A stretch of DNA of 64,000 bases. It comes from Chloroflexia bacterium (GTDB lineage Bacteria > Chloroflexota > Chloroflexia > QHBQ01 > JADMIH01). Below, piece after piece: positions 7,851-31,648 of the stretch; the stretch's first letter is position 1; each line of letters starts with the position of its first letter. The stretch covers positions 64,590-128,589 of the forward strand of contig JBBRDO010000001.1 in the NCBI GenBank assembly GCA_038203825.1, in the 5' to 3' direction. Under the pieces are notes generated by a model that saw only the letters and a list, made by a program, of their open reading frames with translations, did not search any database and was not told the origin of the DNA. The position numbers were made by a program, and so were the translations under genes.

Positions 7851-7874
7851 CACGTAAGGACAGGGAGGTTGCAT

Positions 7875-12940: not shown

Positions 12941-14590
12941 TTACGTAGTCGGCGTTTCCGCCTGTGCCTGGGTCTCGGCTTTTGCCTGCAAACCATCGCC
13001 ACCGGAGCCTGGGTGGAAGCTCCACTCTGCGGGAATATGGATTAAGCCCCAACGCTCCGCCAGGCCCGGGGTCGGCTGAACGTAGAAACTGTAGGCGCGA
13101 TGCTGGTGGTCGAGAGTTTCAGCTATGTCAGCGCCGGTCAGGGCCACAGTAACGTCATACATACCCGCCAGCAGGGGCAGATTATCAATGTGGTAGTCAA
13201 CGTGACCTGTTCCGTCAATGTAAGGGATTTCGAGCCCGCTGAAGCGCGTGTTGGGCCCGTTCAGATGGACGCCGTTCTGCGTATAGAGTGCGATCCCGAA
13301 TACGGGGTTCTCAATACGATCGTGTGCCGCATAGTAAATGCGGATCGTAAATGGCTGGTCTGTCAGGAACGTCTTAATGTCCTGGCCATCCGCATTGAAG
13401 AATCGAACATCGAAGATTTCAGCGCGTCCGCTTGTCCAATGCGTGCCCGGTGCGTCGTATGTGAACTTGCCGACGTTTTCTTCGGTCTCCGGGTCGGCCT
13501 GCTCAGGAGAGTCTTGGCCTGTCTGTCCCTGCTCTTCCAGGTCCTCCTGGGTTGGCTCCTGTATTTCAACAGCAGCGTGAGAGGCGCCCGAGGCGTATCT
13601 GGCTGACGTGCCATCCCGGCGCGCTTCGTATTCCTCGCGGATCCGATCAGCGTGCTTCTCGTTCTCGAAGGTGAGATACTGATCTATAACATCGTTCGCC
13701 GGACCGTCGGCAATTAGCTTGCCGTGATCGAGCCAGATAGCCCGGCTGCACAGGCTGCGCACCGAGTCCAGGGCGTGTGAAACATAGATGATGGTTACGC
13801 CACGCCTGCGCAGTGCAGCTATATAGTCGAGGCATTTGCGCTGGAAAGCTTCATCACCCACAGCCAGGACTTCGTCGGTTAGCAATATATCCGGGTCCAC
13901 ATTGATGGCCACGGCAAACCCCAACCGCATCACCATGCCTGACGAGTAATGTTTGATGGGCGTATCAATGAACTCGCTCATCTCCGCAAAATCGACGATG
14001 GCATCGTATCGATCGGCCATTTCCTTGCGTGGGATGCCCAGTAATGAGCCGTTGAGGAATATATTCTCGCGACCCGTAAGTTCCGGGTGAAAGCCCGTCC
14101 CCAGTTCTAATAACGCCGACACTTTGCCGCGGACGGATACACTGCCCGATGTAGGATCGAGGATGCGCGACACCAGTTTCAGGGTGGTAGATTTTCCCGA
14201 GCCATTCTCGCCGATTATGCCAACTGCTTCCCCCTGGTAGATGCCGAAGTTCACGTCCTTCAATGCCCAGAACTTCTCAGTAGCAGGGCGAGGCATCGGC
14301 TTACCAAGCCGCGAGGGGCTGCGCAGCCCGAAAAGGCTTACCACCATATCCTGGAACGATTGAGGACGCTCGTGTCGCAGAGTGAACTTCTTTGAAACGT
14401 TGCTGAACTTGATTACCTTGGCACGCGCTGGACTTGTTCGCACTGCTACGGCCTGCGGGGGAGTCACCTGCTGCCCAGATTTGGCGCCCGCAACTTGCTC
14501 CTGTGCAGGATGCTTTTCACTGTCTGTAAGCCCATTCGTGTGAATAAGGCCGTCGCTGTTCTCAATCGTTTCTTCTGTACCGTGTGCCAC
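12941..14590 (-). CDS. wzt: Polysaccharide ABC exporter ATP-binding protein (Wzt/TagH-like) with a C-terminal glycan-binding beta-sandwich domain
   Basis: 549 aa. Walker A GENGSGKST, signature YSSGMVMRLGFA, Walker B ILLTDEVLAVGD. An acidic linker is followed by a Wzt_C-like segment (AEIFDVRFFNADGQ...FTIRIYY...NPVFGIALYTQNGVHLNGPNT...LPLLAGMYDVTVAL). Confidence 0.85.
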   Translation of the reverse strand: MAHGTEETIENSDGLIHTNGLTDSEKHPAQEQVAGAKSGQQVTPPQAVAVRTSPARAKVIKFSNVSKKFTLRHERPQSFQDMVVSLFGLRSPSRLGKPMPRPATEKFWALKDVNFGIYQGEAVGIIGENGSGKSTTLKLVSRILDPTSGSVSVRGKVSALLELGTGFHPELTGRENIFLNGSLLGIPRKEMADRYDAIVDFAEMSEFIDTPIKHYSSGMVMRLGFAVAINVDPDILLTDEVLAVGDEAFQRKCLDYIAALRRRGVTIIYVSHALDSVRSLCSRAIWLDHGKLIADGPANDVIDQYLTFENEKHADRIREEYEARRDGTSARYASGASHAAVEIQEPTQEDLEEQGQTGQDSPEQADPETEENVGKFTYDAPGTHWTSGRAEIFDVRFFNADGQDIKTFLTDQPFTIRIYYAAHDRIENPVFGIALYTQNGVHLNGPNTRFSGLEIPYIDGTGHVDYHIDNLPLLAGMYDVTVALTGADIAETLDHQHRAYSFYVQPTPGLAERWGLIHIPAEWSFHPGSGGDGLQAKAETQAQAETPTT

Positions 14591-14593
14591 TGC

Positions 14594-15433
14594 TTAGATC
14601 TCCTCCCCAAAGCTGTGGCTGAGACGCATGAAAAACAGGTACCCACCCACGAGTAACACAGTACATACAATCAAGTTACGCAGCATGAAGAACGGATCAG
14701 GGCTCGCCGCGTCGCTGTAGTAGAACACTTCTCGGAAGTTCGCCACGAGCGAGGCCATCGGGTTCAAATAGTACATCCAGTTCGCCAGGTCGTGCACAAC
14801 ATCGCGCGCGTCGTAGATGATGGGCGTAAGGAAGAACCACGCGCTCAAGCCAACTTCAACCAGCACGCTCGTATCGCGGAAGAAGACGTTGAGGGCAGAG
14901 ATGAAGAAGCCAAGGCCCGTAAGGAAGATGGTCTGAGTAAGGATCAGCAGAGGAACCCAGAGCAGGTGGGCATTAAAGCAGGCGTACTGGCAATCCGAGC
15001 CAAACGGTGAGCCCGACCCTTCGGGCCTCAAGATGATCATGAACAGTACCAATGCAGGAAGCGCCAGCAGAAAGTTGATCATGTTGGCTAAGACGACTGC
15101 TACTGGGAGCATTTCGCGCGGGAAGTATACCTTCTTTATCAGATAGCCGCTGTTCACAATGCTACCGAGCGTGCCCGTGACTGCCGAAGCGCACCAGTTC
15201 CACGGCAGCAGCGCCACCAGGAAGAAAACGTGATACATCGGGTGTGTGGGGTTATTCTCGCTGCCCAATAACTGCTGGAAAACGAAGGTAAAGACCAGCA
15301 TCAACAGGACGGGGTTCAGGAGCGACCAGAAGAAGCCGAGAACGGAGTGCTTGTATCGCACCTTCAAGTCGCGAACGACAAGGTTATAAAGGAGGTCCCG
15401 ATAGTCTATGGATCGCTTTGCGCGTGCTAACAA
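14594..15433 (-). CDS. wzm: Polysaccharide ABC exporter permease (ABC-2 type, Wzm/TagG-like)
   Basis: 279 aa. The N-terminal motif YRDLLYNLVVRDLKVRYKHSVLGFFWSLLNP is typical of Wzm/TagG. About 6 TM segments. Its stop lies 3 nt before the wzt start. It uses a TTG start. Confidence 0.85.
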   Translation of the reverse strand: MLARAKRSIDYRDLLYNLVVRDLKVRYKHSVLGFFWSLLNPVLLMLVFTFVFQQLLGSENNPTHPMYHVFFLVALLPWNWCASAVTGTLGSIVNSGYLIKKVYFPREMLPVAVVLANMINFLLALPALVLFMIILRPEGSGSPFGSDCQYACFNAHLLWVPLLILTQTIFLTGLGFFISALNVFFRDTSVLVEVGLSAWFFLTPIIYDARDVVHDLANWMYYLNPMASLVANFREVFYYSDAASPDPFFMLRNLIVCTVLLVGGYLFFMRLSHSFGEEI

Positions 15434-15480
15434 ATGAATGACCGCCTTCCGGAAGGTAGGCTAATTAGGGTACTTCAAGG

Positions 15481-15510
15481 ATTATAAGTTGGTACATGCC
15501 GCATAGTCAA
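15481..15510 (-). promoter_or_regulatory. Candidate sigma70 promoter for wzm-wzt
   Basis: The minus strand reads TTGACT (15510-15505), an 18-nt spacer, then TATAAT (15486-15481). It lies about 48 nt upstream of the wzm start codon, in a 362-bp lower-GC gap. Confidence 0.5.
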
Positions 15511-15795
15511 GCAGTGTGCGAAACGGCGCAGGTTCAGCGTACCTACTTTTGGCGCCGCAGTCGGCCTCTAGCCGATGACTCCTATATTGGAACGTTTCAG
15601 CTGAGACGCGGTTCCAACAACGCGTCATTGACATCGCTATTTATGACCGTCAAAGATGTCTATAACGCACCGACCAGCAGCCGATTTTACGAACGAATTG
15701 GCTAAGTGCGTAAAGAGCCATTTGGCAATGCATGTGGCATTTCACACTATTTGCGCGTCAACACGCTTCAGGAAGCCTCGTGACGCCCGTTGCGT

Positions 15796-16779
15796 TTATC
15801 TTGGCGACTTAATTCCGACGAAGACCGGGAATCTGGCCTCTTCGCGTTTTTGGGGCTGCAAAAGAGCTCTAATCCGCCGCCGAACACGTCCGAGAGGGCG
15901 TTCAGTCGATACGACTCGCACTCGAAATCCTGCCTCATGGAGGTGATCCAGAAGTTCAGACTCGACCAGGAAACCGTGCCCACCAGGCAGGTCTGCAGGC
16001 TCACGGCCAAGAACGCGCGACAGTGTTTGACGCTGTTCCATGGCCATTATCACGCCAGGTGCAGGTGCGCTGTAAATCGGACTGTCGGAGATAACGAGCA
16101 TACCGTTTGGGCGAAGTACCCGGTACGCCTCAACCAGCGTTGTTGGAACGTCGGAGTAGTAGAGCGCGGCACTCACCGTACATAAGTCGAAGGCTTGATC
16201 GCCAAACGGCAAGCGATCCATAGAGGCCTGCACGCGATCGAACCATAACTTGTCGTGTTGTATGAACATCAGACCGGTCGTAAGACTGTCACTTCCCTGG
16301 ACATTCAGATCCAGGGCGACCGTGGTAAAGCCGAGCTGAGCCAGGCGGCGGGAGAGCCAGCAGTTGCCCGCGCCGAGGTCAAGTGCCACCGCGCCGTTGG
16401 GATTGCCGAGGTGCCTGTGTAGTTCGTCCTCAATCGCGATCAAGCTGCGCCTGCGTATCCGCCAGATCTGCGCGGTAGGATCGTCTTGGGGGACCTGCGG
16501 TAGGCTCAGATAGTATGCCTCGTCGCGCTCCCAACCCTCCCGTGAGCGCTGCAAAGGGTAGCTTTCGAGAAAAGGCGCAAATCGAGCCCGTTGTTGCTCT
16601 GTAAGCATTCGCCAGATGCCATCGACGCAGTCAAACCGGTCGACGCAGTCAAACCGGTCGACGCAGTCAACACATACGACCGTCGATGGGCGTGTGAGGC
16701 GACACTTCGCACCGCAACGTGGGCAACGCATGAGCTCGCTGAAGCCGACGGTGCGTTGTCGCTCTAAATCGTCCATCAT
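15796..16779 (-). CDS. Class I SAM-dependent methyltransferase with an N-terminal zinc-ribbon (Trm112-like) segment
   Basis: CPRCGAKC...VVCVDC is followed by the SAM-binding motif ALDLGAGNCWLSRRLAQLG and by LRPNGMLVISD. The start MMDDLERQ at 16779 forms an ATGA overlap with the upstream small ORF. The track ORF extends to 16857. Confidence 0.8.
   Translation of the reverse strand: MMDDLERQRTVGFSELMRCPRCGAKCRLTRPSTVVCVDCVDRFDCVDRFDCVDGIWRMLTEQQRARFAPFLESYPLQRSREGWERDEAYYLSLPQVPQDDPTAQIWRIRRRSLIAIEDELHRHLGNPNGAVALDLGAGNCWLSRRLAQLGFTTVALDLNVQGSDSLTTGLMFIQHDKLWFDRVQASMDRLPFGDQAFDLCTVSAALYYSDVPTTLVEAYRVLRPNGMLVISDSPIYSAPAPGVIMAMEQRQTLSRVLGREPADLPGGHGFLVESELLDHLHEAGFRVRVVSTERPLGRVRRRIRALLQPQKREEARFPVFVGIKSPR
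16622..16670. repeat. 18-bp tandem repeat, 2.7 copies, in frame inside the methyltransferase gene
   Basis: TCGACGCAGTCAAACCGG occurs at 16622-16639 and 16640-16657, with a partial copy at 16658-16670. On the minus strand it encodes CVDRFD-CVDRFD-CVDG. Confidence 0.95.
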
Positions 16780-17045
16780 TTGGGGTCCACCGTTGCGAGA
16801 AGGGCTTGCGGCGGGCCCATAGTGCCCGCCACGTTCCGGACAGGCGACGCACTGCACCAGAGGTCATTCCGGCCGAGCGTTGGCTCTCGACCGGCGCACA
16901 CGGCGAAAATCCGCCGGATCCACTTAAGGGCCTCGTCCGAGGCCTCCGGGGCGTTTGTAATCGAGCCGCCCCGCGCAGCTTCCAAAACACAACTTACAGT
17001 CGCAGGGTTGGCGGGCTCGTCTACACAGAAGATCACGTGCGCCAT
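16776..17045 (-). CDS. Hypothetical small protein (89 aa)
   Basis: The ORF MAHVIFCVDEPANPATVSCVLEAARGG... has a TGA stop that overlaps the methyltransferase ATG (ATGA). It fills the gap between the GT-C gene and the methyltransferase. It has no recognisable motif. Confidence 0.3.
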   Translation of the reverse strand: MAHVIFCVDEPANPATVSCVLEAARGGSITNAPEASDEALKWIRRIFAVCAGREPTLGRNDLWCSASPVRNVAGTMGPPQALLATVDPK

Positions 17046-17114
17046 CGTGCTTACAGTATATCAAACTGTACCGGCGTGTTACACAGGAAAGCGAGCAGTT
17101 GGCAATCAGGCGAA

Positions 17115-18476
17115 TTACACACTGGTCAGTTGCGGTACCCAGGGTCTCGGCGGCGGGTGTGCGAGCACTCGGTATAGGAGCTCATCCACACCATAGAGGA
17201 CGATCGGCGCACCGGGCATCGTGTGCTCGCCCATCCAGGTCGCCAGTGGTGCGACCGTGATCGCATAAGGCGCGGCTACCGGCGGCAGCTGTGACTGGAT
17301 CCTGACCGAGGTAATCGCTTCGCTTACACCAGCCAACATATAAACGACAAGTAACAGGGTCGCCGCAACAGATAGGAAGCGCGACTGCCACTCTCGCTGC
17401 CGCAACACGTTGTAGAGAATCACTGCCGTTGCTCCAGCTGCGACGGCCAGTAGTGGAAGCGCTGCCTGCAAATGGAAGCGCCCGTACCTCGGCCAAACCG
17501 GCAGTGTGGCTGCCAAGAGCAGGCTAGGTCCCGCTATCAAGGGTCGTGAATATCTGCCTGCTACGTGCCGCACGCCCAGAGCAGCCCCCGCCAACGTCAA
17601 TGCAACCAGGGGCGCGAATGCCACGAGCAGCCAGAAGCTATCGCCGGAAGGTGGTGCCATGCCGGCTGCCGCGGCGTAATTCCCCTCGAGCGAGTACGTG
17701 ATTATCCAGTATGCAGCTGCGGGACCTGCCCCCTGAGACGTGAGGTAGACCGCCGCGAGGGTTAAAGGCACTAGCATGCCAAAGGCGAATGCCGAGAGAC
17801 GTCGCCACCGCCCTCGCCGTTGCCTGTCCCATGCAAGAGCCAGCAGCACTCCAAGTACAGCAAACACCGCATGCTGTTTCAGCAGCATCGCAACGGCAAG
17901 CAACCCCCCCAACGCGCCGGCCAACGGGATTTCGGTGGCCGCCCGGGTACGGTCAGCGGTATTTGCAGCGTTTTCGTCCTGCAAAACCAGTAAGAGCACG
18001 ATGACAAGGTAGACGGGAGCGAGCGCGCCGTCGTACCACAAGTGATCCGCGTTGGCCCCAACCGCCCAGAATGCCACGCCTGTCAGGGCGACAAGTGCGC
18101 CCCATGCTCCGCACAGTTTCCTCGCCACAATGTAAGTCAGCAACAGCGTCACGGCTCGAAGAGCAACGATGAGGACTCGGAGAGGTAGGCCAGGGTCACC
18201 ATCGAATGGCACCAGTAACCAGGGAAGAAGTGGCGGGTGCTGGTCAATGAGGTCCGTATAAAGTACCCACCCGCGCCTGATCAGCCACGGCAGTAGGGTA
18301 GTCTCAGCATCGACCGAGTATTGCTCATACCAGGCATAGACTAGCGCGGCAACAGCAACAAGGATGGCTAATGGGCCCGCGGCACCGATCCTAAGTCTCC
18401 TCAGTCCTGCGGGTGTGGCGGAACGCCGTTTTTCATCCAAGGCTGCCCGTGACGGGGTGGAACTCGTCTGAGCCAT
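17115..18476 (-). CDS. Polytopic membrane protein, GT-C-like glycosyltransferase (family unresolved), paralog of 23749-25296
   Basis: About 453 aa from MAQTSSTPS (18476), with at least 10 hydrophobic segments. The first-loop motif is LLPWLIRRGWVLYTDLIDQHPPLLPWLL. The C-terminal soluble tail is PIVLYGVDELLYRVLAHPPPRPWVPQL. Confidence 0.6.
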   Translation of the reverse strand: MAQTSSTPSRAALDEKRRSATPAGLRRLRIGAAGPLAILVAVAALVYAWYEQYSVDAETTLLPWLIRRGWVLYTDLIDQHPPLLPWLLVPFDGDPGLPLRVLIVALRAVTLLLTYIVARKLCGAWGALVALTGVAFWAVGANADHLWYDGALAPVYLVIVLLLVLQDENAANTADRTRAATEIPLAGALGGLLAVAMLLKQHAVFAVLGVLLALAWDRQRRGRWRRLSAFAFGMLVPLTLAAVYLTSQGAGPAAAYWIITYSLEGNYAAAAGMAPPSGDSFWLLVAFAPLVALTLAGAALGVRHVAGRYSRPLIAGPSLLLAATLPVWPRYGRFHLQAALPLLAVAAGATAVILYNVLRQREWQSRFLSVAATLLLVVYMLAGVSEAITSVRIQSQLPPVAAPYAITVAPLATWMGEHTMPGAPIVLYGVDELLYRVLAHPPPRPWVPQLTSV

Positions 18477-18495
18477 CAAATGCCTGGGCCGCGCA

Positions 18496-19896
18496 TCATT
18501 CTGCTTGATTCTCTCCGTGCGCCGGGACCGCAGAGTGTACACCCATACCACCGGCACTGGCCAATAGGCCCACGTAAACCCAGGGGAACGCGAGCCACGA
18601 ACCCTCTGTCACCTGGAAAGCCACTAGAAGGGCCGCAAGAGCACCAAGCAAACCGAGTGTGGTCCATTGAAACACCTGGCTTTCAGGGTAACGCTGGAGC
18701 CCGCGCGCTGATGCCCAGATCAAGCCCCCGATGCCGGCCAGCCAGCAGGCCAGGCCGATGAGGCCGCTGTCATAGACCACATGAAACTCCAGATTTGAGA
18801 TCCAGCCAGGGTTGCCCTTAGCATCCTGATGGCCGACGGCGAAACTACCGGCGCCGTTGCCCACGAAGGGGTGTGCCTCGATACCCGGCATGGCGTCTTG
18901 CAAACTATCCACACGAGCGCGCAATGAGGGATCGGCCTGAGGATCGTAGGCGCTCACGTTCACTCTGCTGAAGAGAACAGAGCTTGTACCGGGAAATACC
19001 AGCGGAGCGAGGCCGACGAGGAATAGCGCAGCTGCAGCAGTTGCCGACACCGCGAGAGCCAAGTTTGGTCTTCTCCTTAGTGCGGGCTTACTGTCGATGC
19101 GAGGCGCGCTGGCGCGCTTGCGAGATAAAGCTAATCCGACGACCAGCACAAGTACTCCCGCAGCGAACCCCAACCAGGCACCACGCGCTAAGCTGAGCCC
19201 AAGTGCAGCCAGGATTAGTGCCAGGCCACAAGCCAGAACTAACGCGCGGCGTCGCGATGCTTCGGCAATCAGGGTAGCCACGGTTAGGATAGCGCCTGCA
19301 GCCAGATAGCTTCCCAGAAAGTTAGGCTCCCAGAGCGTGCCCGTAGGCACGGCAATACCCCCGGTTCCTATCTGTGCGCCAGGCGGCACCCATGACCAGG
19401 CCAGGCCGAGCACCAGAAAGGTCAGCACGGCTTCTGCGCAGGCAAGTGTGATAAGCATGTCAACGGCCTGAGACAGACGCCTTCTCGTGTCGACCAGTCC
19501 GTACGCCAGCCATGCCGCGGAAGTCACTAGTGCAACCATGACCGTGTGGCGCACACTCTCAGCTGGGTCGGGCGCGTTCAGAACCGATGCTACAAGTAGC
19601 GTAACAAGTAGCGGAATCGTCCATAAGAGAAGTCGGGCCTTTGCGAACCGCCCATTGAGAACTAGACGCCAGCCAACGAGCGCCCACAATACCAGCAGCG
19701 CCACGTGTTCGGGTTTCACTGTTAGCCCCGCGACCACAAACGCAGGCTGCTCAAGGCTGACGCCGACAATGAGTAGTAGCAGAGCCGCCAATTGTAGGCG
19801 GACCCCGAGCATACCCACCGCCATGCCGCCGGGCCTGTGGCTGGTCAAATCCGGCACTTCAGGTACAGCAACTCTGCCTGTTCTGCTCGGCTCCAT
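18496..19896 (-). CDS. O-antigen ligase/polymerase-like (Wzy_C family) membrane protein
   Basis: 466 aa with about 11 TM segments. A large external loop holds HPFVGNGAGSFAVGH, resembling the O-antigen ligase family motif. Confidence 0.65.
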   Translation of the reverse strand: MEPSRTGRVAVPEVPDLTSHRPGGMAVGMLGVRLQLAALLLLIVGVSLEQPAFVVAGLTVKPEHVALLVLWALVGWRLVLNGRFAKARLLLWTIPLLVTLLVASVLNAPDPAESVRHTVMVALVTSAAWLAYGLVDTRRRLSQAVDMLITLACAEAVLTFLVLGLAWSWVPPGAQIGTGGIAVPTGTLWEPNFLGSYLAAGAILTVATLIAEASRRRALVLACGLALILAALGLSLARGAWLGFAAGVLVLVVGLALSRKRASAPRIDSKPALRRRPNLALAVSATAAAALFLVGLAPLVFPGTSSVLFSRVNVSAYDPQADPSLRARVDSLQDAMPGIEAHPFVGNGAGSFAVGHQDAKGNPGWISNLEFHVVYDSGLIGLACWLAGIGGLIWASARGLQRYPESQVFQWTTLGLLGALAALLVAFQVTEGSWLAFPWVYVGLLASAGGMGVHSAVPAHGENQAE

Positions 19897-20128
19897 CGGG
19901 CGCGCTCTCCTCCTCTATCTTGCCGAAATTATAGCGAATCCGCGGTTCGTACCGCAAGGAATGTTCGTGCGCCTCCACATCGTCCAAGCGTCCTGGTAAC
20001 AAGACCGACTCGGGTGAACGCGCCACGCCACAGGTACACCGCGCACATTATCCGCTCGGTGGTGGTAGAATTGTGCCGGTATGCACTTCCAAGCGGACCA
20101 TAGCGAGAGCACTATCTCTGAGTGGTGA

Positions 20129-21834: not shown

Positions 21835-21849
21835 GGTTCATGACCGCAC

Positions 21850-23607: not shown

Positions 23608-23748
23608 TCAATATACCACGGTGAAGATTGGTCCGGCAAAGAACTCTAGCGAATTCAGGACCATGAACAGGGGTTCGCTGGCGCCCTCGGACTTGATCGA
23701 TTGTATATAATTGCGGAGTTCGTGAATGCCCGTCAAGGAGTGGAAAGC

Positions 23749-25296
23749 ATGGTTGGACCGGAACACACAGGGAGTTCGCGGGCCGAGCCTTCGGTCCGCA
23801 ATAAACATGACTTCCTCAGTGGTCATATGGGCGCAGTGTCGCTTACGGCGGTGGCTTGTATCGCCCTGGTAATCGGCGGACTGAGCGCAACCGTGGCCCG
23901 CAATGGCCTGCACTGGGACCAGGAGACGGCCCTGTACCCATGGTTGATGAACAATGGCTGGGTATTGTATCGCGACATTCGCGACCAGCACGGCCCCCTA
24001 TTTCCCAGCCTCCTTTCACTCTTGCCTGATCCTGGGAGTGCGGGCACTCAGTTCGTCTTCATGCTCCTGCTGGTGGCGCTTGTCGCGCTGTTGACCGCAA
24101 TTGCTGCCTGGCGCACGTCCAGTCCGGCGGCTGCGCTCTTTGCGGTCGGCCTCTACGCGCTCTGGATACTACCATTTGACGGGGCGCATGTTTGGTACGA
24201 TCTCGGCCTCGCCCCATTCTACCTGGCCGCATTCCTCGTCGCCTGGGACATGCTCGCCAAGCCGGCCGAGAATTGGCGTCCCGTGGCGCTCGGGTTGCTC
24301 CTGGGTCTGGCGTTTCTGCTAAAGCAGCAGGCCGCGGTTGCCCTCTTGGGCGGGCTTGCGGTTGTGCCATTGCACCAAAGGCGTTCTGTTGCCTTGTACG
24401 TAGGCGCGGCTAGCTTGCCGGTACTCATCAGCGTTCTAGTTTTCTCAATCACAGGTGCAGTGGGGGACTATTTCTACTGGGTCGTGACATATAACTTGAC
24501 GCCCACATACGTCCAGGGAGCTTCCGCCCTCGTCCCGCCGGCGGATTGGCCCCTCATTCTTGCCCTCCTGGCACCGGTGCCTGCGCTTGCTGCCGGCCTT
24601 TCCCCTATGAAAAGCATTTGGCGCAGGCGGCTCGGCTTCATCATCTTTTCAGGCGGCTTACTGTTCGCAGCAATAATTCCGATCTGGCCGCGCTATGCAC
24701 GTTTCCATCTGGCAGGCGCTCTGCCCCTGCTGGCCTTATTCGGCGGCATTGCCATCTGGAATTTGTTGGTACACTTTCCGGGATTCCGTTCTCGCGCTGT
24801 ACTTCCTTGGGCGGGAGGAGTTCTGCTTATCCTCCTTTCTCTCAGGCTCACTGGGCCGTCGGGTTTGCGGACGCTGGCGGGCGTCTGGCGAGTCCAACCT
24901 GCTCCCTTACCGTATAGCTCCACTATCGCTCCGCTTCGTAACTGGGTTCAGTCGAATACGCCCCCCGACCGTCCGATCCTCGTGTATGATCTCGATTCCA
25001 CGCTGTATCGGGTGCTCGAACGACAACCGCCAAAGCCGTGGTCTCCCTTCTTCCCCTGGATCATGGAAGGCGATTCCACAGCTGCGCAGTGGGTCGCAGG
25101 CATCGAAACCGCGCGCCCGCGCATCGCCCTCGTCACGCCTGAATTTGTTGCCGGGCGTCACCTACCGATCCCCGACGGAGGACGCAGCGAAGAATTCCTC
25201 AGAGCGAACTACGTGGCAGGGCCCGTGTTCACGGTCGAGAAATATCCCGGTTCAGGACAGCAGCAGATCGTCGCGCTGCAATTAGCAGGCCCATAA
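23749..25296 (+). CDS. Polytopic membrane protein, GT-C-like glycosyltransferase, paralog of 17115-18476
   Basis: AAGGAG lies 9 nt upstream of the ATG at 23749. Motifs shared with the paralog are ALYPWLMNNGWVLYRDIRDQHGPLFPSLL and PILVYDLDSTLYRVLERQPPKPWSPFF. The track ORF starts at a TTG at 23701. Confidence 0.6.
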   Translation: MVGPEHTGSSRAEPSVRNKHDFLSGHMGAVSLTAVACIALVIGGLSATVARNGLHWDQETALYPWLMNNGWVLYRDIRDQHGPLFPSLLSLLPDPGSAGTQFVFMLLLVALVALLTAIAAWRTSSPAAALFAVGLYALWILPFDGAHVWYDLGLAPFYLAAFLVAWDMLAKPAENWRPVALGLLLGLAFLLKQQAAVALLGGLAVVPLHQRRSVALYVGAASLPVLISVLVFSITGAVGDYFYWVVTYNLTPTYVQGASALVPPADWPLILALLAPVPALAAGLSPMKSIWRRRLGFIIFSGGLLFAAIIPIWPRYARFHLAGALPLLALFGGIAIWNLLVHFPGFRSRAVLPWAGGVLLILLSLRLTGPSGLRTLAGVWRVQPAPLPYSSTIAPLRNWVQSNTPPDRPILVYDLDSTLYRVLERQPPKPWSPFFPWIMEGDSTAAQWVAGIETARPRIALVTPEFVAGRHLPIPDGGRSEEFLRANYVAGPVFTVEKYPGSGQQQIVALQLAGP

Positions 25297-26611
25297 CCAG
25301 CCCCCAGAGCACCAGAGTGCCATAGAGGCGCGGGTAATAAAGCAGCGAACGCCAACCCTCGACGCCAGGCACATTGAAACGCCAGGGAGCGCCAAGTAAC
25401 AGTGCTGAAACGAACAGGGCTATCGACCCCGCCAGGATTGGCAGACGCGCTTGCAGGTTTCTCGTTCGGATATTGGCGGCATACATATCCCATATGACCC
25501 TCAACACAACCAGTAACGGAAACAGCGTAAGCACAAAATGGTAATCCTCAGCCACGGGTGCCAGAACAAGCGCCAGCGGCACTACAAGAGCCACGGGAAG
25601 TAACCCCTGCGCGACAGTCGCCGGGCGTGTATCGACGACTGTGCTACGTATGTACAACGTCCAGCTGGTTAGCGCGACCAACACCACAGCCCAGGCCCAC
25701 CAGAGCCACCCCGCCAGCGCGGGCATGTTCACCACAGGCACCGGGTTATAAGTGGCGTCGTAGCGCAACAAATGAGTAAGCCAACTGTTGAGCGTCTGGT
25801 AGGCAGTAACCGCAGTTTCAGGCCGGTCGCGCCATGTGACCGCGAACCTCAGCGCGCGAACCCACTGCTCAGTACCCCATAGTGCAACGGTAACGCCGGC
25901 TGCGGCAGCAAAGAACGCAAGGGCCGAAATCAGCAGGCGCCAGCGCCTCCAGAGTAGGATAGGAAGCAGCAGGATAGCCGCGTAATAGAGCTTAACAATA
26001 GCGAACAGGCCCAAAGTCAAACCCGCCGCAATCTGGGTTCGACTCGTGCCCTTTGACTGTGTTCCCTCCTGAAAATCGTGCAGACGAAAGCCCAGCACGG
26101 CGCCCACAGCCAGAAGCAACAATAACAATGGATAAGCCTGCCCCCGGCTGATATTCTCGCGCCAGGGGTGAAATAGCGGCGCGAGCGCCCATAGCCCAAA
26201 TTCCATGGTTCGGGTCGGCGCGAGCGCTCGAAACAATAATGCGCAAGACAGAATATAGCAGAATAGCATCAACATGTCCCAGATCGTGCGTGCTGTTGTC
26301 TCGCTAAAGGCCGCCAGCGGCAAGAACACCAGGATCGTCGTGGGCATGTTCGCTTCGAAGATGTCGGGCACTGTTCCAAGGCGCGTGGCTTGCTGGAAGA
26401 ATACATCTCGATCTGCGTAAATGAGATTTGCATTTCCCTCGATAGCGAGCCGCGCCGCGACCCAGTAGGCAGGGTTTGGCCAATGCGGTGCCTGCACGGC
26501 CGGCAGCAGCACTCGCACACCAAAGTCGGACCATGTCAGCACTGCAATCAGCAGCAGAAGCAAGTGCAGCAGGAGTCCAGGCTTTTGCGCCGAGAAGATT
26601 GAGGTACCCAT
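25229..26611 (-). CDS. Polytopic membrane glycosyltransferase, DUF2029/GT87-like
   Basis: 460 aa with about 11 TM segments. The N-terminal loop AYWVAARLAIEGNANLIYADRD resembles the GT87/DUF2029 pattern. It starts 2 nt after the methyltransferase stop. Confidence 0.5.
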   Translation of the reverse strand: MGTSIFSAQKPGLLLHLLLLLIAVLTWSDFGVRVLLPAVQAPHWPNPAYWVAARLAIEGNANLIYADRDVFFQQATRLGTVPDIFEANMPTTILVFLPLAAFSETTARTIWDMLMLFCYILSCALLFRALAPTRTMEFGLWALAPLFHPWRENISRGQAYPLLLLLLAVGAVLGFRLHDFQEGTQSKGTSRTQIAAGLTLGLFAIVKLYYAAILLLPILLWRRWRLLISALAFFAAAAGVTVALWGTEQWVRALRFAVTWRDRPETAVTAYQTLNSWLTHLLRYDATYNPVPVVNMPALAGWLWWAWAVVLVALTSWTLYIRSTVVDTRPATVAQGLLPVALVVPLALVLAPVAEDYHFVLTLFPLLVVLRVIWDMYAANIRTRNLQARLPILAGSIALFVSALLLGAPWRFNVPGVEGWRSLLYYPRLYGTLVLWGLVMGLLIAARRSAAVLNRDISRP

Positions 26612-26613
26612 TG

Positions 26614-27525
26614 CTAGACTGACAACTCGTTATCCGAGGCTCCCGAGGGGTGCGGTTTGTCGAGTACAAATAAGCGAGGTTCAATGTACATCCCGTCGTC
26701 GTGGTGCTGCCGGTTTAGCACGCGATAAAGAGCCCGCGCCCGGCGCCCGGATGGTGTAAGGTAGCTGTGCAGCCAGTAGAAGCGCGACAAGGCGTTAGAC
26801 GCAAGAGTTCGCAAGTCCAGACTTGAGCGCGCCGTCTTCCGGTCCCCGGGTGCGGCGCTAATAATGTCGGAGCTTACAACCTGGAAGCCGGCATCCTTCA
26901 TAACGCCCAGCCACTCATCAAGCGCCCAGGGTGAATCTGACGCCATGCGCAGGCCGAAGTCCGCGAGACATGACGCGTTGATGGCAGCAATAGTTTTGGC
27001 GGGTACTCCGGTTCGCCAGATCGCTTCGTTCGCCACATATCTGCCGCTCGGCTTCAGGACGCGGTACATCTCTTGGAGCAGTGCTTTCGCGCCCTGAGCG
27101 TCCTGGAAACCCAGCACTGATTCCGTGTAGACCCTGTCATATGATGCGTCGGCGAAAGGCAGGCGCCCGTCAGGCTCCACAAGGTGTACGGCAGAGCGCT
27201 TGCCGAGGCCCGACAGGCGAATGCGTTTGCGTGCTACTTGCAGCATGGCAGGTGTAACATCGACGCCGTCAATCCGCGCCGGCTTGTACTGAGCCAGGCG
27301 CGCCATCGTACCGCCGGTCCCGCAACCCACGTCCAGCACACGCAAACCTCCACGCAGCCCCAGTCGTTCGATCAAAGCCGCGGTGGCTGCCAGGCCGAGT
27401 GGGTGGATCTCCGTTGCGCCCGTGCCAGCGAGATGCACCAAGAATCGCAAGTCCATCTGGCGATTTTGGTCGACAGCAGGGTGGCCGGACTCATCAGTAT
27501 CGGTAGAATAATCTGATTTGAGCAT
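26614..27525 (-). CDS. Class I SAM-dependent methyltransferase
   Basis: 303 aa. Motif I VLDVGCGTGGTMARLA, post-I DGVDVTPAML, and the motif LKPSGRYVANE. Confidence 0.8.
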   Translation of the reverse strand: MLKSDYSTDTDESGHPAVDQNRQMDLRFLVHLAGTGATEIHPLGLAATAALIERLGLRGGLRVLDVGCGTGGTMARLAQYKPARIDGVDVTPAMLQVARKRIRLSGLGKRSAVHLVEPDGRLPFADASYDRVYTESVLGFQDAQGAKALLQEMYRVLKPSGRYVANEAIWRTGVPAKTIAAINASCLADFGLRMASDSPWALDEWLGVMKDAGFQVVSSDIISAAPGDRKTARSSLDLRTLASNALSRFYWLHSYLTPSGRRARALYRVLNRQHHDDGMYIEPRLFVLDKPHPSGASDNELSV

Positions 27526-27630
27526 GTTACAGTTTCGGGTGCCTCAAGTAATCTGCGGCCAATATAATCTGCACACGCACGCACGTCAATCGAGGGCAGC
27601 CCGAACAATGCCAATTTGGCCTCTCGAGCC

Positions 27631-29396
27631 TCAATACTGTAGGGCTTGTTTGATCTGATCGACAGTCAAATGTCTGATGTTGCGGAAGATGCGTACGGTG
27701 GGGTGATCGAACACTTGAAATGTCTCTTCGGTACTATCGTCTGGGAAAACCAGCGGTCCAAGCCGGGGCGAGCTCTGAAACGTGGCCACGGGCGCGTACC
27801 CCAGGTCACCAGCGAACAGCAACCGGTAATAGCGCCCCATGAGTCGGAAGTTGGGCAGGCGCGGTAATGTACCTGACCAACGCCTGCTGGCTATTACCAG
27901 ATATTCCCCTCCGGCAAGTTCGGATGCCATCCTAGACAACTTTGCAGGCGAATCGGGTGTTGTAGGCGCTATGACTCCGAGCTTATAGGTCTGCACCGGG
28001 TATGCTGCGTCCGGAATCGGGATCAACGTGTCCTTGTCCTCCACCACTACACTCGTGCCCGCAGGCACGGTACTGTGAAACCAGTCAGTTGCCGCCAGCC
28101 TTGTGTCGGCGAAGCATAGATGGTAAGAAACGCGAGCCCCCACAGCGCGCTGAATGTTACCACCATCGCCGCAATAGCGCGCGAAAGCGTTCGCAAACTA
28201 GCACCTTTGCTCTCACCCCACGTCATCAGCGCGCCAATAGCCCCGGCCGCAAAGAGGCAGAGAAAAGGCACTAACAGCAGGGTGTGTCGCACGAACCGGG
28301 CCTCCCAGGTGCCTATGTACAGAAAATAAAGGGCAGGCCACAACGTAAGCAGAAGAGTGGGTAGCAGTTCTACCCGCCGAAGCACCATGCGCGTTACCGA
28401 TAGCGCCCAACCCACAACGCCGCTAATACCCGTGGCAAGACCCACGCTCCAGACTATCAGATTGCTCCCTTCGAACATGTAGGGCGTTGTGCCAATGAAT
28501 TGCCACGTGTAAACCAATGTGTACCCACCATTCAACTCTTGAGATTGTTCCACAAGAGCAGCCCGGAACTCGTTCCAGTCCAGCAAGTAGTAAGGCGATG
28601 CGACCAGAGCTATTACCCCGCCAATCGCCACGAAGACCAGATAACGAGAAGCACGGAGCAAGAACCGACTTTCACGGGATACCGGGCACTCGACACGAGA
28701 AAGGCGAGTGTTGGTATGACTATGAATGATGCTGCAGTGAGCTTAGTTGCGACTGCGAGGCCAAGCACAACTGCTGTCGCGACGAGGGTGCCCGTGCCTC
28801 CGCCATCAACAATTCGCAGAGATAGCCACAGAATGGCAACTCCCGCAAGCGTAACCATTGTATCCACGGTGCCGAAATGGGCAGCCTGGCTAAGTAGTGG
28901 GGCTGCGGCGGTGATAAAGGCCGCCACCAGCCCCGATGTAACGCCCAACAGTCGCCGCCCAACCAGGAAACACAAGGGGCAGCGTTAAAGTGCTGCAGAG
29001 AGCCGCGTAGAAGCGCCCAATCAATGCCAGGCGCGATGTGTCGAGCCAGTCCAACCCGGTGAGCCAGCGCAGCGCCTCGGCTGTGCCCTTGTACAGATAT
29101 ATCGGAAATGAACCATAGAAGAAGAAGTGCGGATTAAGGTCAGGCCCGAGCCTGCGAATTACCTGGTTAAGCGCCCACTCGTCCGGGTGAAGGTTATGAG
29201 CACCGCCGTCCCAGTTCAGGTTCCAGAAACGAGCCACGCCACCAAGCAGCGCTATGCAGAACAAAAGCAAGGTCGATAGACGTCCCCACGCGGCACGTTT
29301 TACTTCGTTAGGTGCTAGAGACTGCTCTTCAATTTCTGTATTGCCTGCTCTTGCTGCCACATTCGACTCCACGTGCTGATATGACATACAAGCCAC
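27631..29396 (-). pseudogene. ArnT/DUF2298-like GT-C glycosyltransferase gene split over four reading-frame segments (three frameshifts)
   Basis: The four minus-strand ORFs 29396-28890, 28975-28613, 28661-28047 and 28143-27631 read as one protein. The sequence runs ..RFWNLNWDGGAHNLHPDEWALNQV..NPHFFFYGSFPIYLY..TLTLPLVF / LVGRRLLGVTSGLVAAFITAAAPLL..ATKLTAASFIVIPTLAFLV / RASRYLVFVAIGGVIAL..WGLAFLTIYA / DTRLAATDWFHSTVPAG...EETFQVFDHPTVRIFRN. The junctions lie near 28970, 28640-28690 and 28105-28120. Confidence 0.65.
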
Positions 29397-29462
29397 TTAG
29401 CTGCATCTCACGTCTCGCACACCATGGCCGCTGCGGTCCCATCATAACCCAGAGCCCATTGA

Positions 29463-29491
29463 TTGACACCCTTAGCAGCCCACTCTATAAT
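29463..29491 (+). promoter_or_regulatory. Consensus sigma70 promoter upstream of the flippase gene
   Basis: TTGACA (29463-29468), an exactly 17-nt spacer, then TATAAT (29486-29491), about 90 nt upstream of the wzx start. Confidence 0.55.
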
Positions 29492-29581
29492 TCACCTGCA
29501 CTCGCGGCCAACTCAGTCACAATTCGCATAAGACAATTAACGGGAAGCCAAACGCTTAAAGTCCGCTTATGAATCGATAGC

Positions 29582-30898
29582 TTGGACCAACTGGACGTCG
29601 AAAATCCGACCCTCTGGATTCGTATCCTCAGCCTGGCACGCAGACGTGTAACCGGTGATTTGATTGTGACCTTCGGTGGTCGCGGGGTCCAAGTCTTACT
29701 GGGCTTGATTGGCAGTGTTGTCTCTGCTCGAGCCCTCGGTCCCTCTGAGCTTGGACGCTTCGGGATCATAATCTCAGTTATTATGGTCTTCGGCACTCTC
29801 GCCGACGCCGGACTTACCTATTCCGCAATCAGGCTTATCGCTCGCGGGGCTGAGCAGGATTATCAAAGAACTCAAGCGGTGGCGCGCAGTTACTTCTTGC
29901 TTCGCGTGCTGACGGGCGTGACAGTGGCTCTCCTGGGCATTCCTCTGTCGTGGCCCCTGGCCTGGGCGCTCGGCTATCCGGACCTTGTGCCCTTACTGCA
30001 ACTGTCCTTCCTGACTCTGTTCAGTCTCTCTTTGAGCAGTTATCCTGGCACCATACTGATCGGGCTGTCAAAGTTCAAAGAATACGGCGTCGCCGGGGTT
30101 CTGAATGCAGTCATCACGGTAAGCGGTATCCTTGTCCTGTACTTCACAGGCGTCCTTTCGCTTGGCACACTGATCGCGTGGAACGTGTTACTTCCACTCG
30201 TGAGCTCTATACCAGCCTGGTTGCTGATGCCGAAGGAGTGGCTCCCATGGAGACTATGGACAAAGCCGGATCCACGTTTGGGAGATGAGGTCAGGCGAGA
30301 GCTGGTTAATTTCGCAAAGTGGATGGGCGTGTCCCTGGTGGGCACTGTGCTGGTTACACAGGGCGACATCCTGCTGCTGGGCAGGCTGACCACTCCGGCA
30401 GTGGTTGGCGTCTACTCGGTCGCGCTTGCGCTCGCATCACGCCTCGACACTCTCAACCAGAGCCTCTTTACGGTCATGATGCCTCGCGCCAGTCGTCTCG
30501 AAGGCGGAACAAATATGCGGCAATACTGGAGGCGAGTTGCACTAGGATCGCTGGCACTGGCAGGCGCGCTGGCACTGGCTGCAGTGGTTGCCCAACCTGT
30601 TATTATCTTGCTCTATGGTGAGCGGTATGCTGCTTCGGCGGGACTATTCTTCGCCCTGCTTGGAGTGGTACTGTTTGATCTCGCAACCAGTTCTCTCTTC
30701 CTGCTTGTCTTTCCGCTCAACAGGCCGCGTCTACTTGCCGCTGCCGATTGGCTGCGCGTGGTCGTTCTGGGCGGTTCAGGTTGGCTGCTCATTCCCCTCT
30801 ATGGAGCCTTCGGCGCAGTTGTTGCTCGGTTCCTGGCCCGCGTAATCGGCACCACAGTGGTTTTGCTAAGTTTGCGCCGCTCGATAAATGAAGAATAA
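29582..30898 (+). CDS. wzx: Oligosaccharide/polysaccharide flippase (MOP superfamily, Wzx-like)
   Basis: 438 aa with about 12-14 TM segments. The N-terminus LIGSVVSARALGPSELGRFGII is typical of Wzx/polysaccharide biosynthesis proteins. The TTG start is uncertain. Confidence 0.7.
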   Translation: MDQLDVENPTLWIRILSLARRRVTGDLIVTFGGRGVQVLLGLIGSVVSARALGPSELGRFGIIISVIMVFGTLADAGLTYSAIRLIARGAEQDYQRTQAVARSYFLLRVLTGVTVALLGIPLSWPLAWALGYPDLVPLLQLSFLTLFSLSLSSYPGTILIGLSKFKEYGVAGVLNAVITVSGILVLYFTGVLSLGTLIAWNVLLPLVSSIPAWLLMPKEWLPWRLWTKPDPRLGDEVRRELVNFAKWMGVSLVGTVLVTQGDILLLGRLTTPAVVGVYSVALALASRLDTLNQSLFTVMMPRASRLEGGTNMRQYWRRVALGSLALAGALALAAVVAQPVIILLYGERYAASAGLFFALLGVVLFDLATSSLFLLVFPLNRPRLLAAADWLRVVVLGGSGWLLIPLYGAFGAVVARFLARVIGTTVVLLSLRRSINEE

Positions 30899-31192: not shown

Positions 31193-31648
31193 TCAGCGTG
31201 CCCCTGGTTTTGACTTACCTTCGAGAATGTCCTTCATCCGCTCAAGACTCTGCTGATTCTCAGCCGGCACCTGCTCCTTCCGCATCAACAGTATCTGCTC
31301 TCCGAGCGTACCAATCGGTTCAAAGCGGACGCTCTGCACGAGATGCGTGCCGCCGTTTCGCCCGCTCAATGCCATGGTCCAGCGTGTTCGAAATATCTGG
31401 TAATCAGTGGACTCCCAGCCGATTAGAGTAGGTCGATCGAGTGCGCTAATGCGCGCAAAGCTCACAAGTTCTTGCGGCAAGGTTTCGCTAGCTTTGAACT
31501 CGGTGCCCACGCCAACAGGCCCGGGCGTAACCTGCTCAAGCTTCGCAACGCTCATTGACCACTCAGCATGCCGCCAAAAATCTGCCAGGTAACCATACAC
31601 GTCGTCAGGCGGCCTGGCAATATCGATACTTGTCTCATACTCCCACAT
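31193..31648 (-). CDS. SRPBCC (START/polyketide cyclase-like) ligand-binding protein
   Basis: 151 aa. The opening MWEYETSIDIARPPDDVYGYLADFWRHAEWS is the typical SRPBCC N-terminal pattern. It overlaps the upstream cyclase gene by 14 nt. Confidence 0.7.
   Translation of the reverse strand: MWEYETSIDIARPPDDVYGYLADFWRHAEWSMSVAKLEQVTPGPVGVGTEFKASETLPQELVSFARISALDRPTLIGWESTDYQIFRTRWTMALSGRNGGTHLVQSVRFEPIGTLGEQILLMRKEQVPAENQQSLERMKDILEGKSKPGAR

Follow-up and report, generated by a model that had tools for sequence, protein, structure and literature searches.

The 64,000-nucleotide window analyzed here (positions 64,590 to 128,589 of contig JBBRDO010000001.1 in the Chloroflexia bacterium assembly GCA_038203825.1; G+C content about 58%) carries a locus rich in genes for membrane glycosyltransferases of the GT-C type. 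The host is an uncultured, probably monoderm soil bacterium of the Chloroflexia, and the closest relatives of the window are soil-catalogue metagenome-assembled genomes (MAGs) labelled Chloroflexia bacterium. Open reading frames (ORFs) of at least 180 amino acids were scanned across the 64 kb with Pfam and NCBIfam models, those outside the locus being either scanned or recognized from sequence, and membrane spans were counted by a hydropathy scan. No NCBIfam model reached its cutoff for any window protein scanned. Between 12.9 and 30.9 kb we found genes for Wzt, Wzm, a flippase of the MOP superfamily (Wzx/PST type), a Wzy_C protein, two soluble S-adenosylmethionine (SAM) methyltransferases (MT1 and MT2), and six polytopic proteins of GT-C type; a seventh GT-C gene and a third methyltransferase gene (MT3) are located at 39.6–42 kb (table 1). 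All the genes named in the original prediction, which had been made from the DNA letters alone, are thus present at or near the positions it gave, as judged from ORFs and Pfam matches. These include the two methyltransferases of the 12.9–30.9 kb region and the seventh, intact GT-C gene, and GT-C genes do dominate the locus. The six large GT-C genes predicted within the array are all of this type, but two are multi-lesion pseudogenes (20129–21876 and 27631–29396, hereafter gene 2 and gene 6) and one, X′, is truncated. Four of the seven GT-C genes are therefore intact: PMT-like, X, GT87, and the PMT_2 gene at 39.6 kb.

Table 1. Genes of the glycan locus and a neighboring gene, with their positions in the 64-kb window
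Gene or product	Position	Strand	Evidence and features
wzt	12941-14590	-	Pfam ABC_tran E 1.4e-22 and C-terminal Wzt_C E 3.6e-27
wzm, ABC-2 permease	14594-15433	-	ABC2_membrane E 3.5e-19
MT1, soluble SAM methyltransferase	15796-16857	-	Methyltransf_11 E 5e-14
X′, polytopic, 3′-truncated	17115-18476	-	PMT_2 weak, E 1.6e-4; YTDLIDQH motif
Wzy_C polytopic protein	18496-19896	-	Wzy_C E 1.5e-11, 44.7 bits vs cutoff 31.7
Gene 2, PMT_2-type GT-C pseudogene	20129-21876	+	HIDEDNF motif; repaired protein PMT_2 E 3.5e-12
PMT-like gene, intact	21850-23553	-	PF02366 (PMT) E 1.4e-9, 38.4 bits vs cutoff 22.7
X, intact	23749-25296	+	GT-C by structure prediction and Foldseek; no Pfam family
GT87 (PimE-like), intact	25229-26611	-	PF09594 E 7.8e-16, 59 bits vs cutoff 25
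MT2, soluble SAM methyltransferase	26614-27525	-	Methyltransf_25 E 3.7e-20, Methyltransf_11 E 4e-19
Gene 6, PMT_2-type GT-C pseudogene	27631-29396	-	HPDEW motif; repaired protein PMT_2 E 1.3e-11
MOP-superfamily (Wzx/PST-type) flippase	29582-30898	+	Polysacc_synt_3 E 1.5e-24, Polysacc_synt E 3.3e-24
SpoIID/PA14/dockerin/cohesin secreted protein	36140-39274	-	Pfam; locus membership uncertain
Seventh GT-C gene, intact PMT_2-type	39593-41176	-	PMT_2 E 9e-11; LWTDEA motif
MT3, HemK/PrmA-like small-domain SAM methyltransferase	41242-41979	+	MTS E 7e-18

The core of the locus is syntenic in several Chloroflexia MAGs. In L004 (GCA_035474135.1), the genes are all intact and ordered FNR-pepA-wzt-wzm-MT1-PMT-X-GT87-MT2-WzyC-PMT_2-wzx-SpoIID. 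Near-identical cores occur in L005 (JGI 3300047676), with the order MT1-PMT_2-X′-WzyC-gene2-PMT-X-GT87-MT2-gene6, in L003 (ENA ERZ25039475 contig_10129), and in JGI 3300047160, where gene 2 (559 aa) and gene 6 (578 aa) are intact and radical-SAM genes, GT1 fragments, and a gene for an S-layer homology (SLH) protein lie nearby. The order and the overlaps of the core genes (PMT-like, X, GT87, MT2, Wzy_C, wzx, wzm/wzt, and MT1) are kept at 55–78% protein identity. X and GT87 are convergent and overlap tail to tail by 68 bp (25229–25296), an arrangement also found in L004 (71 bp), L005 (68 bp), and L003 (91 bp). GT-C arrays associated with methyltransferases recur in more distant genomes: L009 (PMT-MT3-MT1-PMT_2-gene2-X′), L010 (a methyltransferase gene, then gene2-YfhO-like-PMT_2-X′-gene6), and L013, L014, and L015, which encode a PMT-like protein 40–47% identical to that of the window together with an overlapping PMT_2/PMT pair, MT3, wzx, Wzy_C, wzt, and SpoIID. 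Both flanks of the window locus (SLH amidase-FNR-pepA; SpoIID, integrase, ABC-2, and PlsY) are matched by those of L013 and L015 as well. This recurrence of gene order in independent MAGs indicates a clustering far beyond chance. Gene order similarly indicates that the distant pair formed by the seventh GT-C gene and MT3 belongs to the same system: orthologs of the former overlap the start of the PMT-like gene in L013, L014, and L015 and lie inside the GT-C array in L004 and L009, and MT3 orthologs, 52–58% identical, are found within the clusters of L009, L013, and L015.

The candidate GT-C proteins have 9–11 membrane spans each, and the acidic motif that had been assigned to the first loop is indeed found 8–30 residues past the first span in every one of them. 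Matches to PMT_2, PMT, or GT87 exceed the Pfam cutoff for five of the seven genes. The two DQH-motif proteins, X and X′, are paralogs sharing 32% identity. X, with about ten hydrophobic spans and basic residues ahead of the first one, has no significant match in Pfam, in NCBIfam, or among the sequences of the PDB. An alignment of 16 sequences revealed the invariant motifs YxDxxDQHxPL, HxWYD, KQ, and WPRYxRFH; residues D76 and D79 of Y-x-D-x-x-D-Q-H, about 30 residues past the first span, are invariant in 16 of 16. The AlphaFold2 model derived from these sequences (mean pLDDT 84.9, pTM 0.85) consists of a helical bundle followed by a small C-terminal alpha/beta domain. When compared with the PDB by Foldseek, its top 30 neighbors are almost all GT-C enzymes, among them AglB (E 2e-6), STT3, AftA, ArnT, DPY19, PglB, ALG9, Pmt4, AftB, Emb, and PimE, with query-normalized TM-scores of 0.45–0.57 for the best 19. 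A profile search of 1.84 billion representative proteins identified 1668 relatives at E ≤ 1e-3 (78 at E ≤ 1e-30), and 15 of 38 sampled relatives have a PMT_2 match; cluster-member records of remote relatives yielded no product name. A scan of metagenome contigs with the family returned two loci only, one of them duplicating L008, in which X is accompanied only by a methyltransferase and an unclassified 460-aa protein. Sequence and model together indicate that X is a divergent, uncurated DQH-motif branch of the PMT_2 clan, and that X and X′ represent an unclassified GT-C family predicted to use polyprenyl-phosphate sugars as donors.

The match of the PMT-like protein to PF02366 is limited to profile positions 81–236 of 245. 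Its AlphaFold2 model, built from 37 homologs (pLDDT 91.4), is closest to ArnT (5f15/5ezm, E 5e-11), then to AglB, STT3, and PglB; the solved protein O-mannosyltransferases (PMTs) come further down, Pmt4 at rank 16 (E 3e-5) and Pmt1/2 at rank 27 or lower. Residues D57, D170, and R383 are invariant in the 37 homologs. The invariant first-loop motif LYGQDSYAYY has D57 followed by a serine and no glutamate, so that QDS replaces the DE motif, which is essential in MtPMT (D74, first external loop; PMC12331936). The PMT_4TMC module is absent from Pfam matches at E ≤ 0.01. We therefore rejected a GT39 protein O-mannosyltransferase, and the modeled structure suggests that the protein should be called an ArnT/oligosaccharyltransferase-like GT-C enzyme. 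For the X and PMT-like models alike, neighbors in the PDB are almost exclusively GT-C enzymes, and transporters appear only at a probability <0.25 with TM-scores of about 0.1. With the Pfam matches, these two confident models agree with the original assignment of the polytopic proteins to GT-C enzymes rather than transporters.

The GT87 protein, with about ten spans, covers profile positions 5–234 of 237 of PF09594. It has no exact database record, and orthologs were found in L003, L004, L005, and JGI 3300047160; D67, D83, and E86 of its first loop are invariant, although among four close orthologs only. The solved PimE structure was not matched by this protein in either single-sequence or profile searches of the PDB, and such searches gave nothing useful for X, the PMT-like protein, the PMT_2 protein at 39.6 kb (about 11 spans), or the Wzy_C protein either.

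Three genes of the array are decayed. Gene 2 had been read as an intact gene at 20129–21834, yet its homology extends to 21876, and comparison with the intact 584-aa ortholog of L005 reveals two lesions: 1 bp has been deleted near 21303, and a GCA codon of L005 is replaced by an in-frame TAA near 21690. Three frameshifts break gene 6 into segments in four frames. Two of them are 1-bp deletions with respect to L005, near 28110 and near 28661; the other falls near 28880–28900, where L003 reads uninterrupted LPLIFLVGRRLL. This junction is the sole use that we made of L003. The gene calls of L003 and L006 (MAG MFD01213) were otherwise discarded for judging pseudogenes, as many genes are split (13047–18836), including in L003 a methyltransferase gene, gene 6, and a radical SAM/SPASM gene; these breaks look like long-read indel error and not biology. 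An assembly error is refuted as the source of the window frameshifts by two Logan contigs from two runs, both gapless at the lesion sites. Contig L001 (run SRR19962010) matches window 18673–27151 at 99.95% identity without gaps and therefore carries both lesions of gene 2. Contig L016, from a sister sample (run SRR19962014), contains all three frameshifts of gene 6 and has lost a further 1 bp at 28743 and 97 bp at about 29255–29351. The long housekeeping genes of the window are intact, which also counts against assembly error. Slippage or phase variation was rejected, as no located indel lies within a long homopolymer.

X′ ends at PPRPWVPQLTSV, the exact point where collinearity with L005 breaks, and the L005 ortholog runs about 80 residues further. 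Positions 929–3253 of L005, corresponding to the last ~80 codons of X′ and a further PMT_2 gene, are replaced by 471 unrelated bases in the window (16653–17123). Nearly all full-length members of the 16-sequence alignment have the C-terminal domain that X′ lacks, and no remnant of this domain was found in any frame downstream of the stop codon. The comparison with L005 indicates that X′ was truncated by a deletion that also took the neighboring PMT_2 gene. Against L005, dN/dS is 0.14–0.20 for the pseudogenes and 0.14–0.27 for the intact genes. The intact genes are under purifying selection, and the values for gene 2 and gene 6 point to their recent inactivation. With two PMT_2 genes inactivated, another one deleted, and X′ cut short, this strain probably makes a simpler glycan than its close relatives do. 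Based on gene content across the relatives, a PMT_2/PMT pair, a methyltransferase, a flippase, and an exporter likely formed the ancestral core. In the sub-lineage of the window, X, X′, GT87, MT1, MT2, and two more PMT_2 genes were likely added to this core, which is now contracting in this strain.

The set of export genes for an ABC-dependent pathway is complete at the Pfam level, with the Wzm permease (about five hydrophobic spans), the Wzt ATPase, and the Wzt_C binding domain. The NCBIfam models nearest to Wzt are TagH and the galactan Wzt, and the galactan Wzm model is also among the best matches, all below cutoff. Wzt orthologs share 77–81% identity in L004 and 71% in L013, and Wzm is 94% identical to its L004 ortholog. 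The C-terminal domain of Wzt binds the methylated or phosphomethylated chain end in Escherichia coli O8/O9a and has been proposed to bind a 2-O-methyl cap in the Geobacillus S-layer glycan pathway (PMC2943079). The Wzy_C protein, with about 11 spans, has orthologs in L004, L005, and L003 and a weaker match in L013; from its sequence, it could be of the ligase, O-oligosaccharyltransferase, or polymerase type. It is the only Wzy-side component, as no Wzz/PCP, initiating transferase, or repeat-unit glycosyltransferase was found in the window. Orthologs of the MOP flippase are 57–78% identical in L003, L004, L014, and L015. The exporter, the flippase, and the Wzy_C protein noted in the original prediction are thus all present. 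They need not mean that two export routes coexist. WsaB, a Wzy_C protein, is the final transferase of an ABC-exported, methyl-capped Geobacillus S-layer glycan (PMC2943079). In a Citrobacter system, a MATE-family flippase carries the polyprenyl-phosphate sugar donor of a GT-C enzyme (PMC11127046); therefore, the flippase encoded here need not imply a separate Wzx/Wzy route.

MT1 and MT2 have no membrane span, so methylation must be cytoplasmic. MT1 has a Cys-rich N-terminal segment and adjoins wzm/wzt in L004 and GT-C genes in L003, L005, and L009. It lies beside wzm both in the window and in L004, and we consider it a candidate chain-end or sugar O-methyltransferase; no specific family could be assigned. 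Its Cys-rich segment (window 16622–16670) contains a perfect 18-bp tandem repeat in 2.7 copies, CVDCVDRFDCVDRFDCVDG in the window versus CVDCGARYDCVDG in the L005 ortholog, the comparison indicating an in-frame duplication specific to the window's lineage. MT2 neighbors GT87 in all relatives examined. The NCBIfam model nearest to MT3 is of the PRK14968 type, below cutoff.

As originally reported, no cytoplasmic glycosyltransferase (GT-A/GT-B), phosphoglycosyl transferase, or nucleotide-sugar gene was detected among window ORFs of 180 aa or longer. Initiating phosphoglycosyl transferases and polymerizing cytoplasmic glycosyltransferases are also missing from the flanks in L004 and L005, and may be encoded elsewhere in the genome. 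The suggestion of a self-contained assembly line is therefore not borne out, the locus containing no initiating transferase, lipid-linked-sugar synthase, or backbone glycosyltransferase. Distant relatives keep further enzymes inside the cluster: a soluble GT2 in L014 and L015, and a PIG-L deacetylase with a GNAT acetyltransferase (Acetyltransf_9) in L013 (6268–8489) and L014 (3882–5920). The restriction to GT-C enzymes is therefore an arrangement of genes in the sub-lineage and not a property of the pathway. The PIG-L and GNAT genes of L013 and L014 hint at a glucosamine-containing glycolipid or glycan. No remnant of the relatives' GT2, PIG-L, or GNAT genes was found in the window by tblastn.

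Taking these data together, we lean slightly toward the view that the locus encodes the export and outer-face half of a lineage-specific methylated envelope-glycan pathway, with backbone synthesis encoded elsewhere. In such a pathway, synthesis of a lipid-linked backbone would take place in the cytoplasm and rely on an initiating transferase and GT-A/GT-B enzymes whose genes lie elsewhere in the genome. The backbone would then be methylated by at least one of the soluble SAM methyltransferases, MT1 being the best candidate for the chain-end cap from its position next to wzm/wzt. The Wzt_C domain, identified by Pfam, would recognize the finished chain for export by Wzm/Wzt. Outside the membrane, the PMT-like, X, GT87, and 39.6-kb PMT_2 proteins would add branch or extension sugars from polyprenyl-phosphate donors, a role consistent with their fold, topology, and conserved first-loop aspartate; donor and acceptor are predicted. 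The donors would be made by a synthase encoded elsewhere and, like a possible second lipid-linked unit, might be flipped by the MOP flippase. Finally, the Wzy_C protein would transfer the product to a wall or membrane anchor or to a surface protein.

Several observations weigh against this half-pathway. The glycan genes are on both strands in at least five transcription units, with the seventh GT-C gene 8 kb off, and it is their co-conservation that suggests a single pathway. Initiating transferases, membrane-anchored GT2 synthases, and backbone glycosyltransferases were found neither in the window nor in the ±10 kb flanks of close relatives, and the first and fourth steps (backbone synthesis and outer-face glycosylation) therefore depend on unseen genes. 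The GT2 of L014 and L015 has no membrane span, and its nearest relatives are of the chondroitin-synthase or PglI type, not DPM/GtrB/ArnC synthases. Nearly half of the GT-C genes are defective, so that the full system may not function in this strain. The glycan, the donor, and the acceptor are predictions for this organism. A more specific proposal is tentative, and we would put it below even chances: that the product, in a clade of uncultured soil Chloroflexia, is a major methylated envelope glycan built mostly outside the membrane, through duplication of an ancestral GT-C pair into an array of five to eight genes including the DQH family. A lipoglycan or a wall polymer bound by SLH domains would be candidates for such a product.

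Both products first proposed, an SLH-binding wall polymer and a protein O-glycan, remain candidates. Protein O-glycosylation, which we think rather unlikely, would have the GT-C enzymes start and extend O-glycans directly on secreted or SLH proteins with Pro/Thr-rich linkers, and the Wzy_C protein act as a PglL/WsaB-type O-oligosaccharyltransferase for the ABC-exported, methyl-capped chain. SLH and other secreted proteins with Pro/Thr-rich linkers are indeed encoded in the window, as had been noted, and an SLH gene adjoins the cluster in JGI 3300047160 and L013, but this adjacency is inconsistent across relatives. The Wzy_C proteins WsaB and WsfB of S-layer glycan clusters are found with Wzm/Wzt and a methyl cap (PMC2943079), and the co-occurrence of a PF02366 match with a GT87 gene recalls mycobacteria, in which a PMT starts protein O-mannose chains that PimE, among others, can extend (PMC12331936). 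Against this, the PMT-like protein has QDS instead of the DE motif and no detectable PMT_4TMC, its model is nearer to ArnT and AglB than to Pmt1, Pmt2, and Pmt4, and no GT-C enzyme of the locus is linked to a peptide acceptor.

The locus might otherwise be a hotspot of independent decoration genes, each GT-C enzyme working in its own multi-component system on a different polymer and the genes being clustered by duplication and turnover. The distribution of genes over both strands and several units would fit, as would the variability of gene 2, gene 6, X′, and the extra PMT_2 gene between relatives, the solitary X of L008 with its methyltransferase and 460-aa neighbor, and pseudogenes and deletions polymorphic between samples, which are typical of variable surface-glycan decoration genes. 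The core, however, keeps its order and overlaps across genomes at 55–78% protein identity, and the individual GT-C genes come without cognate GT2 synthases or GtrA-type flippases; we regard this explanation as improbable. That the polytopic proteins are transporters or other non-glycosyltransferases, in an ordinary O-antigen-like cluster with overlooked glycosyltransferases, could appeal to X, which has no family assignment at threshold and a spurious weak NQR2/RnfD match, but is highly improbable given the over-cutoff PMT_2, PMT, and GT87 matches of five of the seven genes, the GT-C enzymes that make up nearly all significant structural neighbors of both models, and the lack of any GT-A/GT-B domain among the ORFs scanned.

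Elsewhere in the window are genes for leucine catabolism, for SLH proteins, and for a regulator, as well as those for the SpoIID/PA14 protein, an integrase, PlsY, redox enzymes, and another ABC system. The SpoIID gene adjoins the glycan genes in L004 (70% identity), L013 (58%), and L015 (43%). Its secreted 1044-aa product combines SpoIID, PA14, CarboxypepD_reg, dockerin, and cohesin-like domains, the association of dockerin and cohesin within one Chloroflexia protein being unusual. It is possibly a wall-remodeling partner of the glycan locus, its membership being uncertain. Between wzx and SpoIID, window 31193–35339 contains a gene for an SRPBCC/polyketide-cyclase-like protein and one for a 1234-aa adenylate-cyclase/AAA/TPR regulator, whose best NCBIfam match, below cutoff, is a TOMM kinase/cyclase fusion. 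This pair looks like an insertion, because wzx directly abuts SpoIID in L004. On the other side, window 7869–10196 encodes a 775-aa wall hydrolase with SLT, Amidase_2, and Golvesin_C domains, a long Pro/Thr-rich linker, and three SLH repeats; its ortholog flanks the cluster in L013. A tyrosine-recombinase (integrase-like) gene is located at 42864–43919, close to the PMT_2/MT3 pair. L015 and L013 also have integrase genes, located beside the PMT pair in the former and close to the cluster in the latter, and the integrase-like gene of the window may mark a recombination-prone edge of the locus.

To our knowledge, the envelope chemistry of Chloroflexota is almost unknown. Full-text literature searches returned no description of GT-C gene clusters in Chloroflexota, and a search of the papers available no report of O-methyl sugars in Chloroflexus walls. 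The locus provides concrete candidate genes for the wall polymer or the glycoprotein glycans of soil Chloroflexia. It also defines an unclassified GT-C family (YxDxxDQH...HxWYD...KQ...WPRYxRFH) with about 1,700 metagenome cluster representatives that is amenable to biochemistry. The pseudogenes, with the further lesions of the sister sample, would represent the simplification of a surface glycan caught in progress. If an outer-face glycan is indeed built by the GT-C array, the locus would be an independent, non-actinobacterial counterpart of mycobacterial arabinogalactan and lipoarabinomannan (LAM) assembly, and gain and loss of GT-C genes would drive glycan diversity between strains. As the organism is uncultured and the component types are familiar, we consider the finding useful rather than startling.

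In the assembly of mycobacterial arabinogalactan, lipomannan, and LAM, the galactan is exported by Wzm/Wzt, and AftA-D, EmbA-C, PimE, and MptA-C then act with decaprenyl-phosphate sugars (described in part in PMC11127046). The locus shares with this system a Wzm/Wzt-type exporter and several clustered GT-C genes, a GT87 (PimE-family) member, matches of the X and PMT-like models to AftA, AftB, Emb, and PimE at the fold level, and the logic of a cytoplasmic backbone subsequently elaborated on the outer face. Conversely, its enzymes are not Emb or Aft proteins by sequence but PMT_2/ArnT-like, GT87, and DQH-family types; GlfT-type glycosyltransferases, DprE/UbiA-type donor genes, and a GtrA-type flippase are not found nearby; and the locus, in a Chloroflexia host, has a Wzt_C domain and three SAM methyltransferases as integral parts.

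The original prediction considered outer-face assembly by GT-C enzymes to be poorly described outside mycobacteria. This was too strong, as the extracytoplasmic decoration of ABC-exported polymers by GT-C enzymes is established and well documented in Firmicutes and enterobacteria (PMC8035078, PMC11127046, PMC9574508). The multi-component transmembrane glycosylation systems (GtrA/B/V; CsbB/GtcA/YfhO; GacI/J/L; C. youngae PPPRS/MATE/GT136) similarly use an outer-face GT-C enzyme and a polyprenyl-phosphate sugar to modify a pre-formed polymer, with a flippase nearby (PMC8035078, PMC11127046). A YfhO-like GT-C gene is even present in the related arrays L010 and L015. These systems pair one GT-C enzyme with its own membrane GT2 synthase, whereas the 64 kb here contain no synthase but four to seven clustered GT-C genes, a flippase of PST/Wzx type, and co-conserved methyltransferases. 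The S-layer glycan (slg) clusters of Geobacillus stearothermophilus and Paenibacillus alvei resemble the locus in Wzm/Wzt, a capping methyltransferase, a final Wzy_C transferase (WsaB/WsfB), a monoderm host with SLH or S-layer proteins, and, in P. alvei, a side-chain step using lipid-linked glucose (PMC2943079). Unlike the locus, they encode cytoplasmic rhamnosyl- and other GT-A/GT-B transferases, rml genes, and a WbaP-type initiator, and no GT-C gene array. Lactococcal and streptococcal loci for rhamnose-rich wall polysaccharides (dual-chain assembly) also bring together a backbone exported by an ABC transporter, a Wzx-type flippase that serves a second lipid-linked unit, and GT-C-fold enzymes that link or decorate the chains outside the membrane (PMC9574508, PMC10821137). 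They contain a full set of cytoplasmic glycosyltransferases with rml genes and one to three GT-C genes, but no GT87/PMT_2 array and no methyltransferases.

The logic of the locus is closest to that of mycobacterial arabinogalactan and LAM assembly, and its parts to those of the multi-component systems and S-layer glycan clusters. What sets it apart from all these systems is the large number of clustered GT-C genes, the tight co-conservation of three methyltransferases with them, an unclassified GT-C family, and the lack, within 64 kb, of any cytoplasmic glycosyltransferase or donor synthase. All its component types are known from well-studied systems; what is unusual is their arrangement, and the locus does not amount to new machinery.

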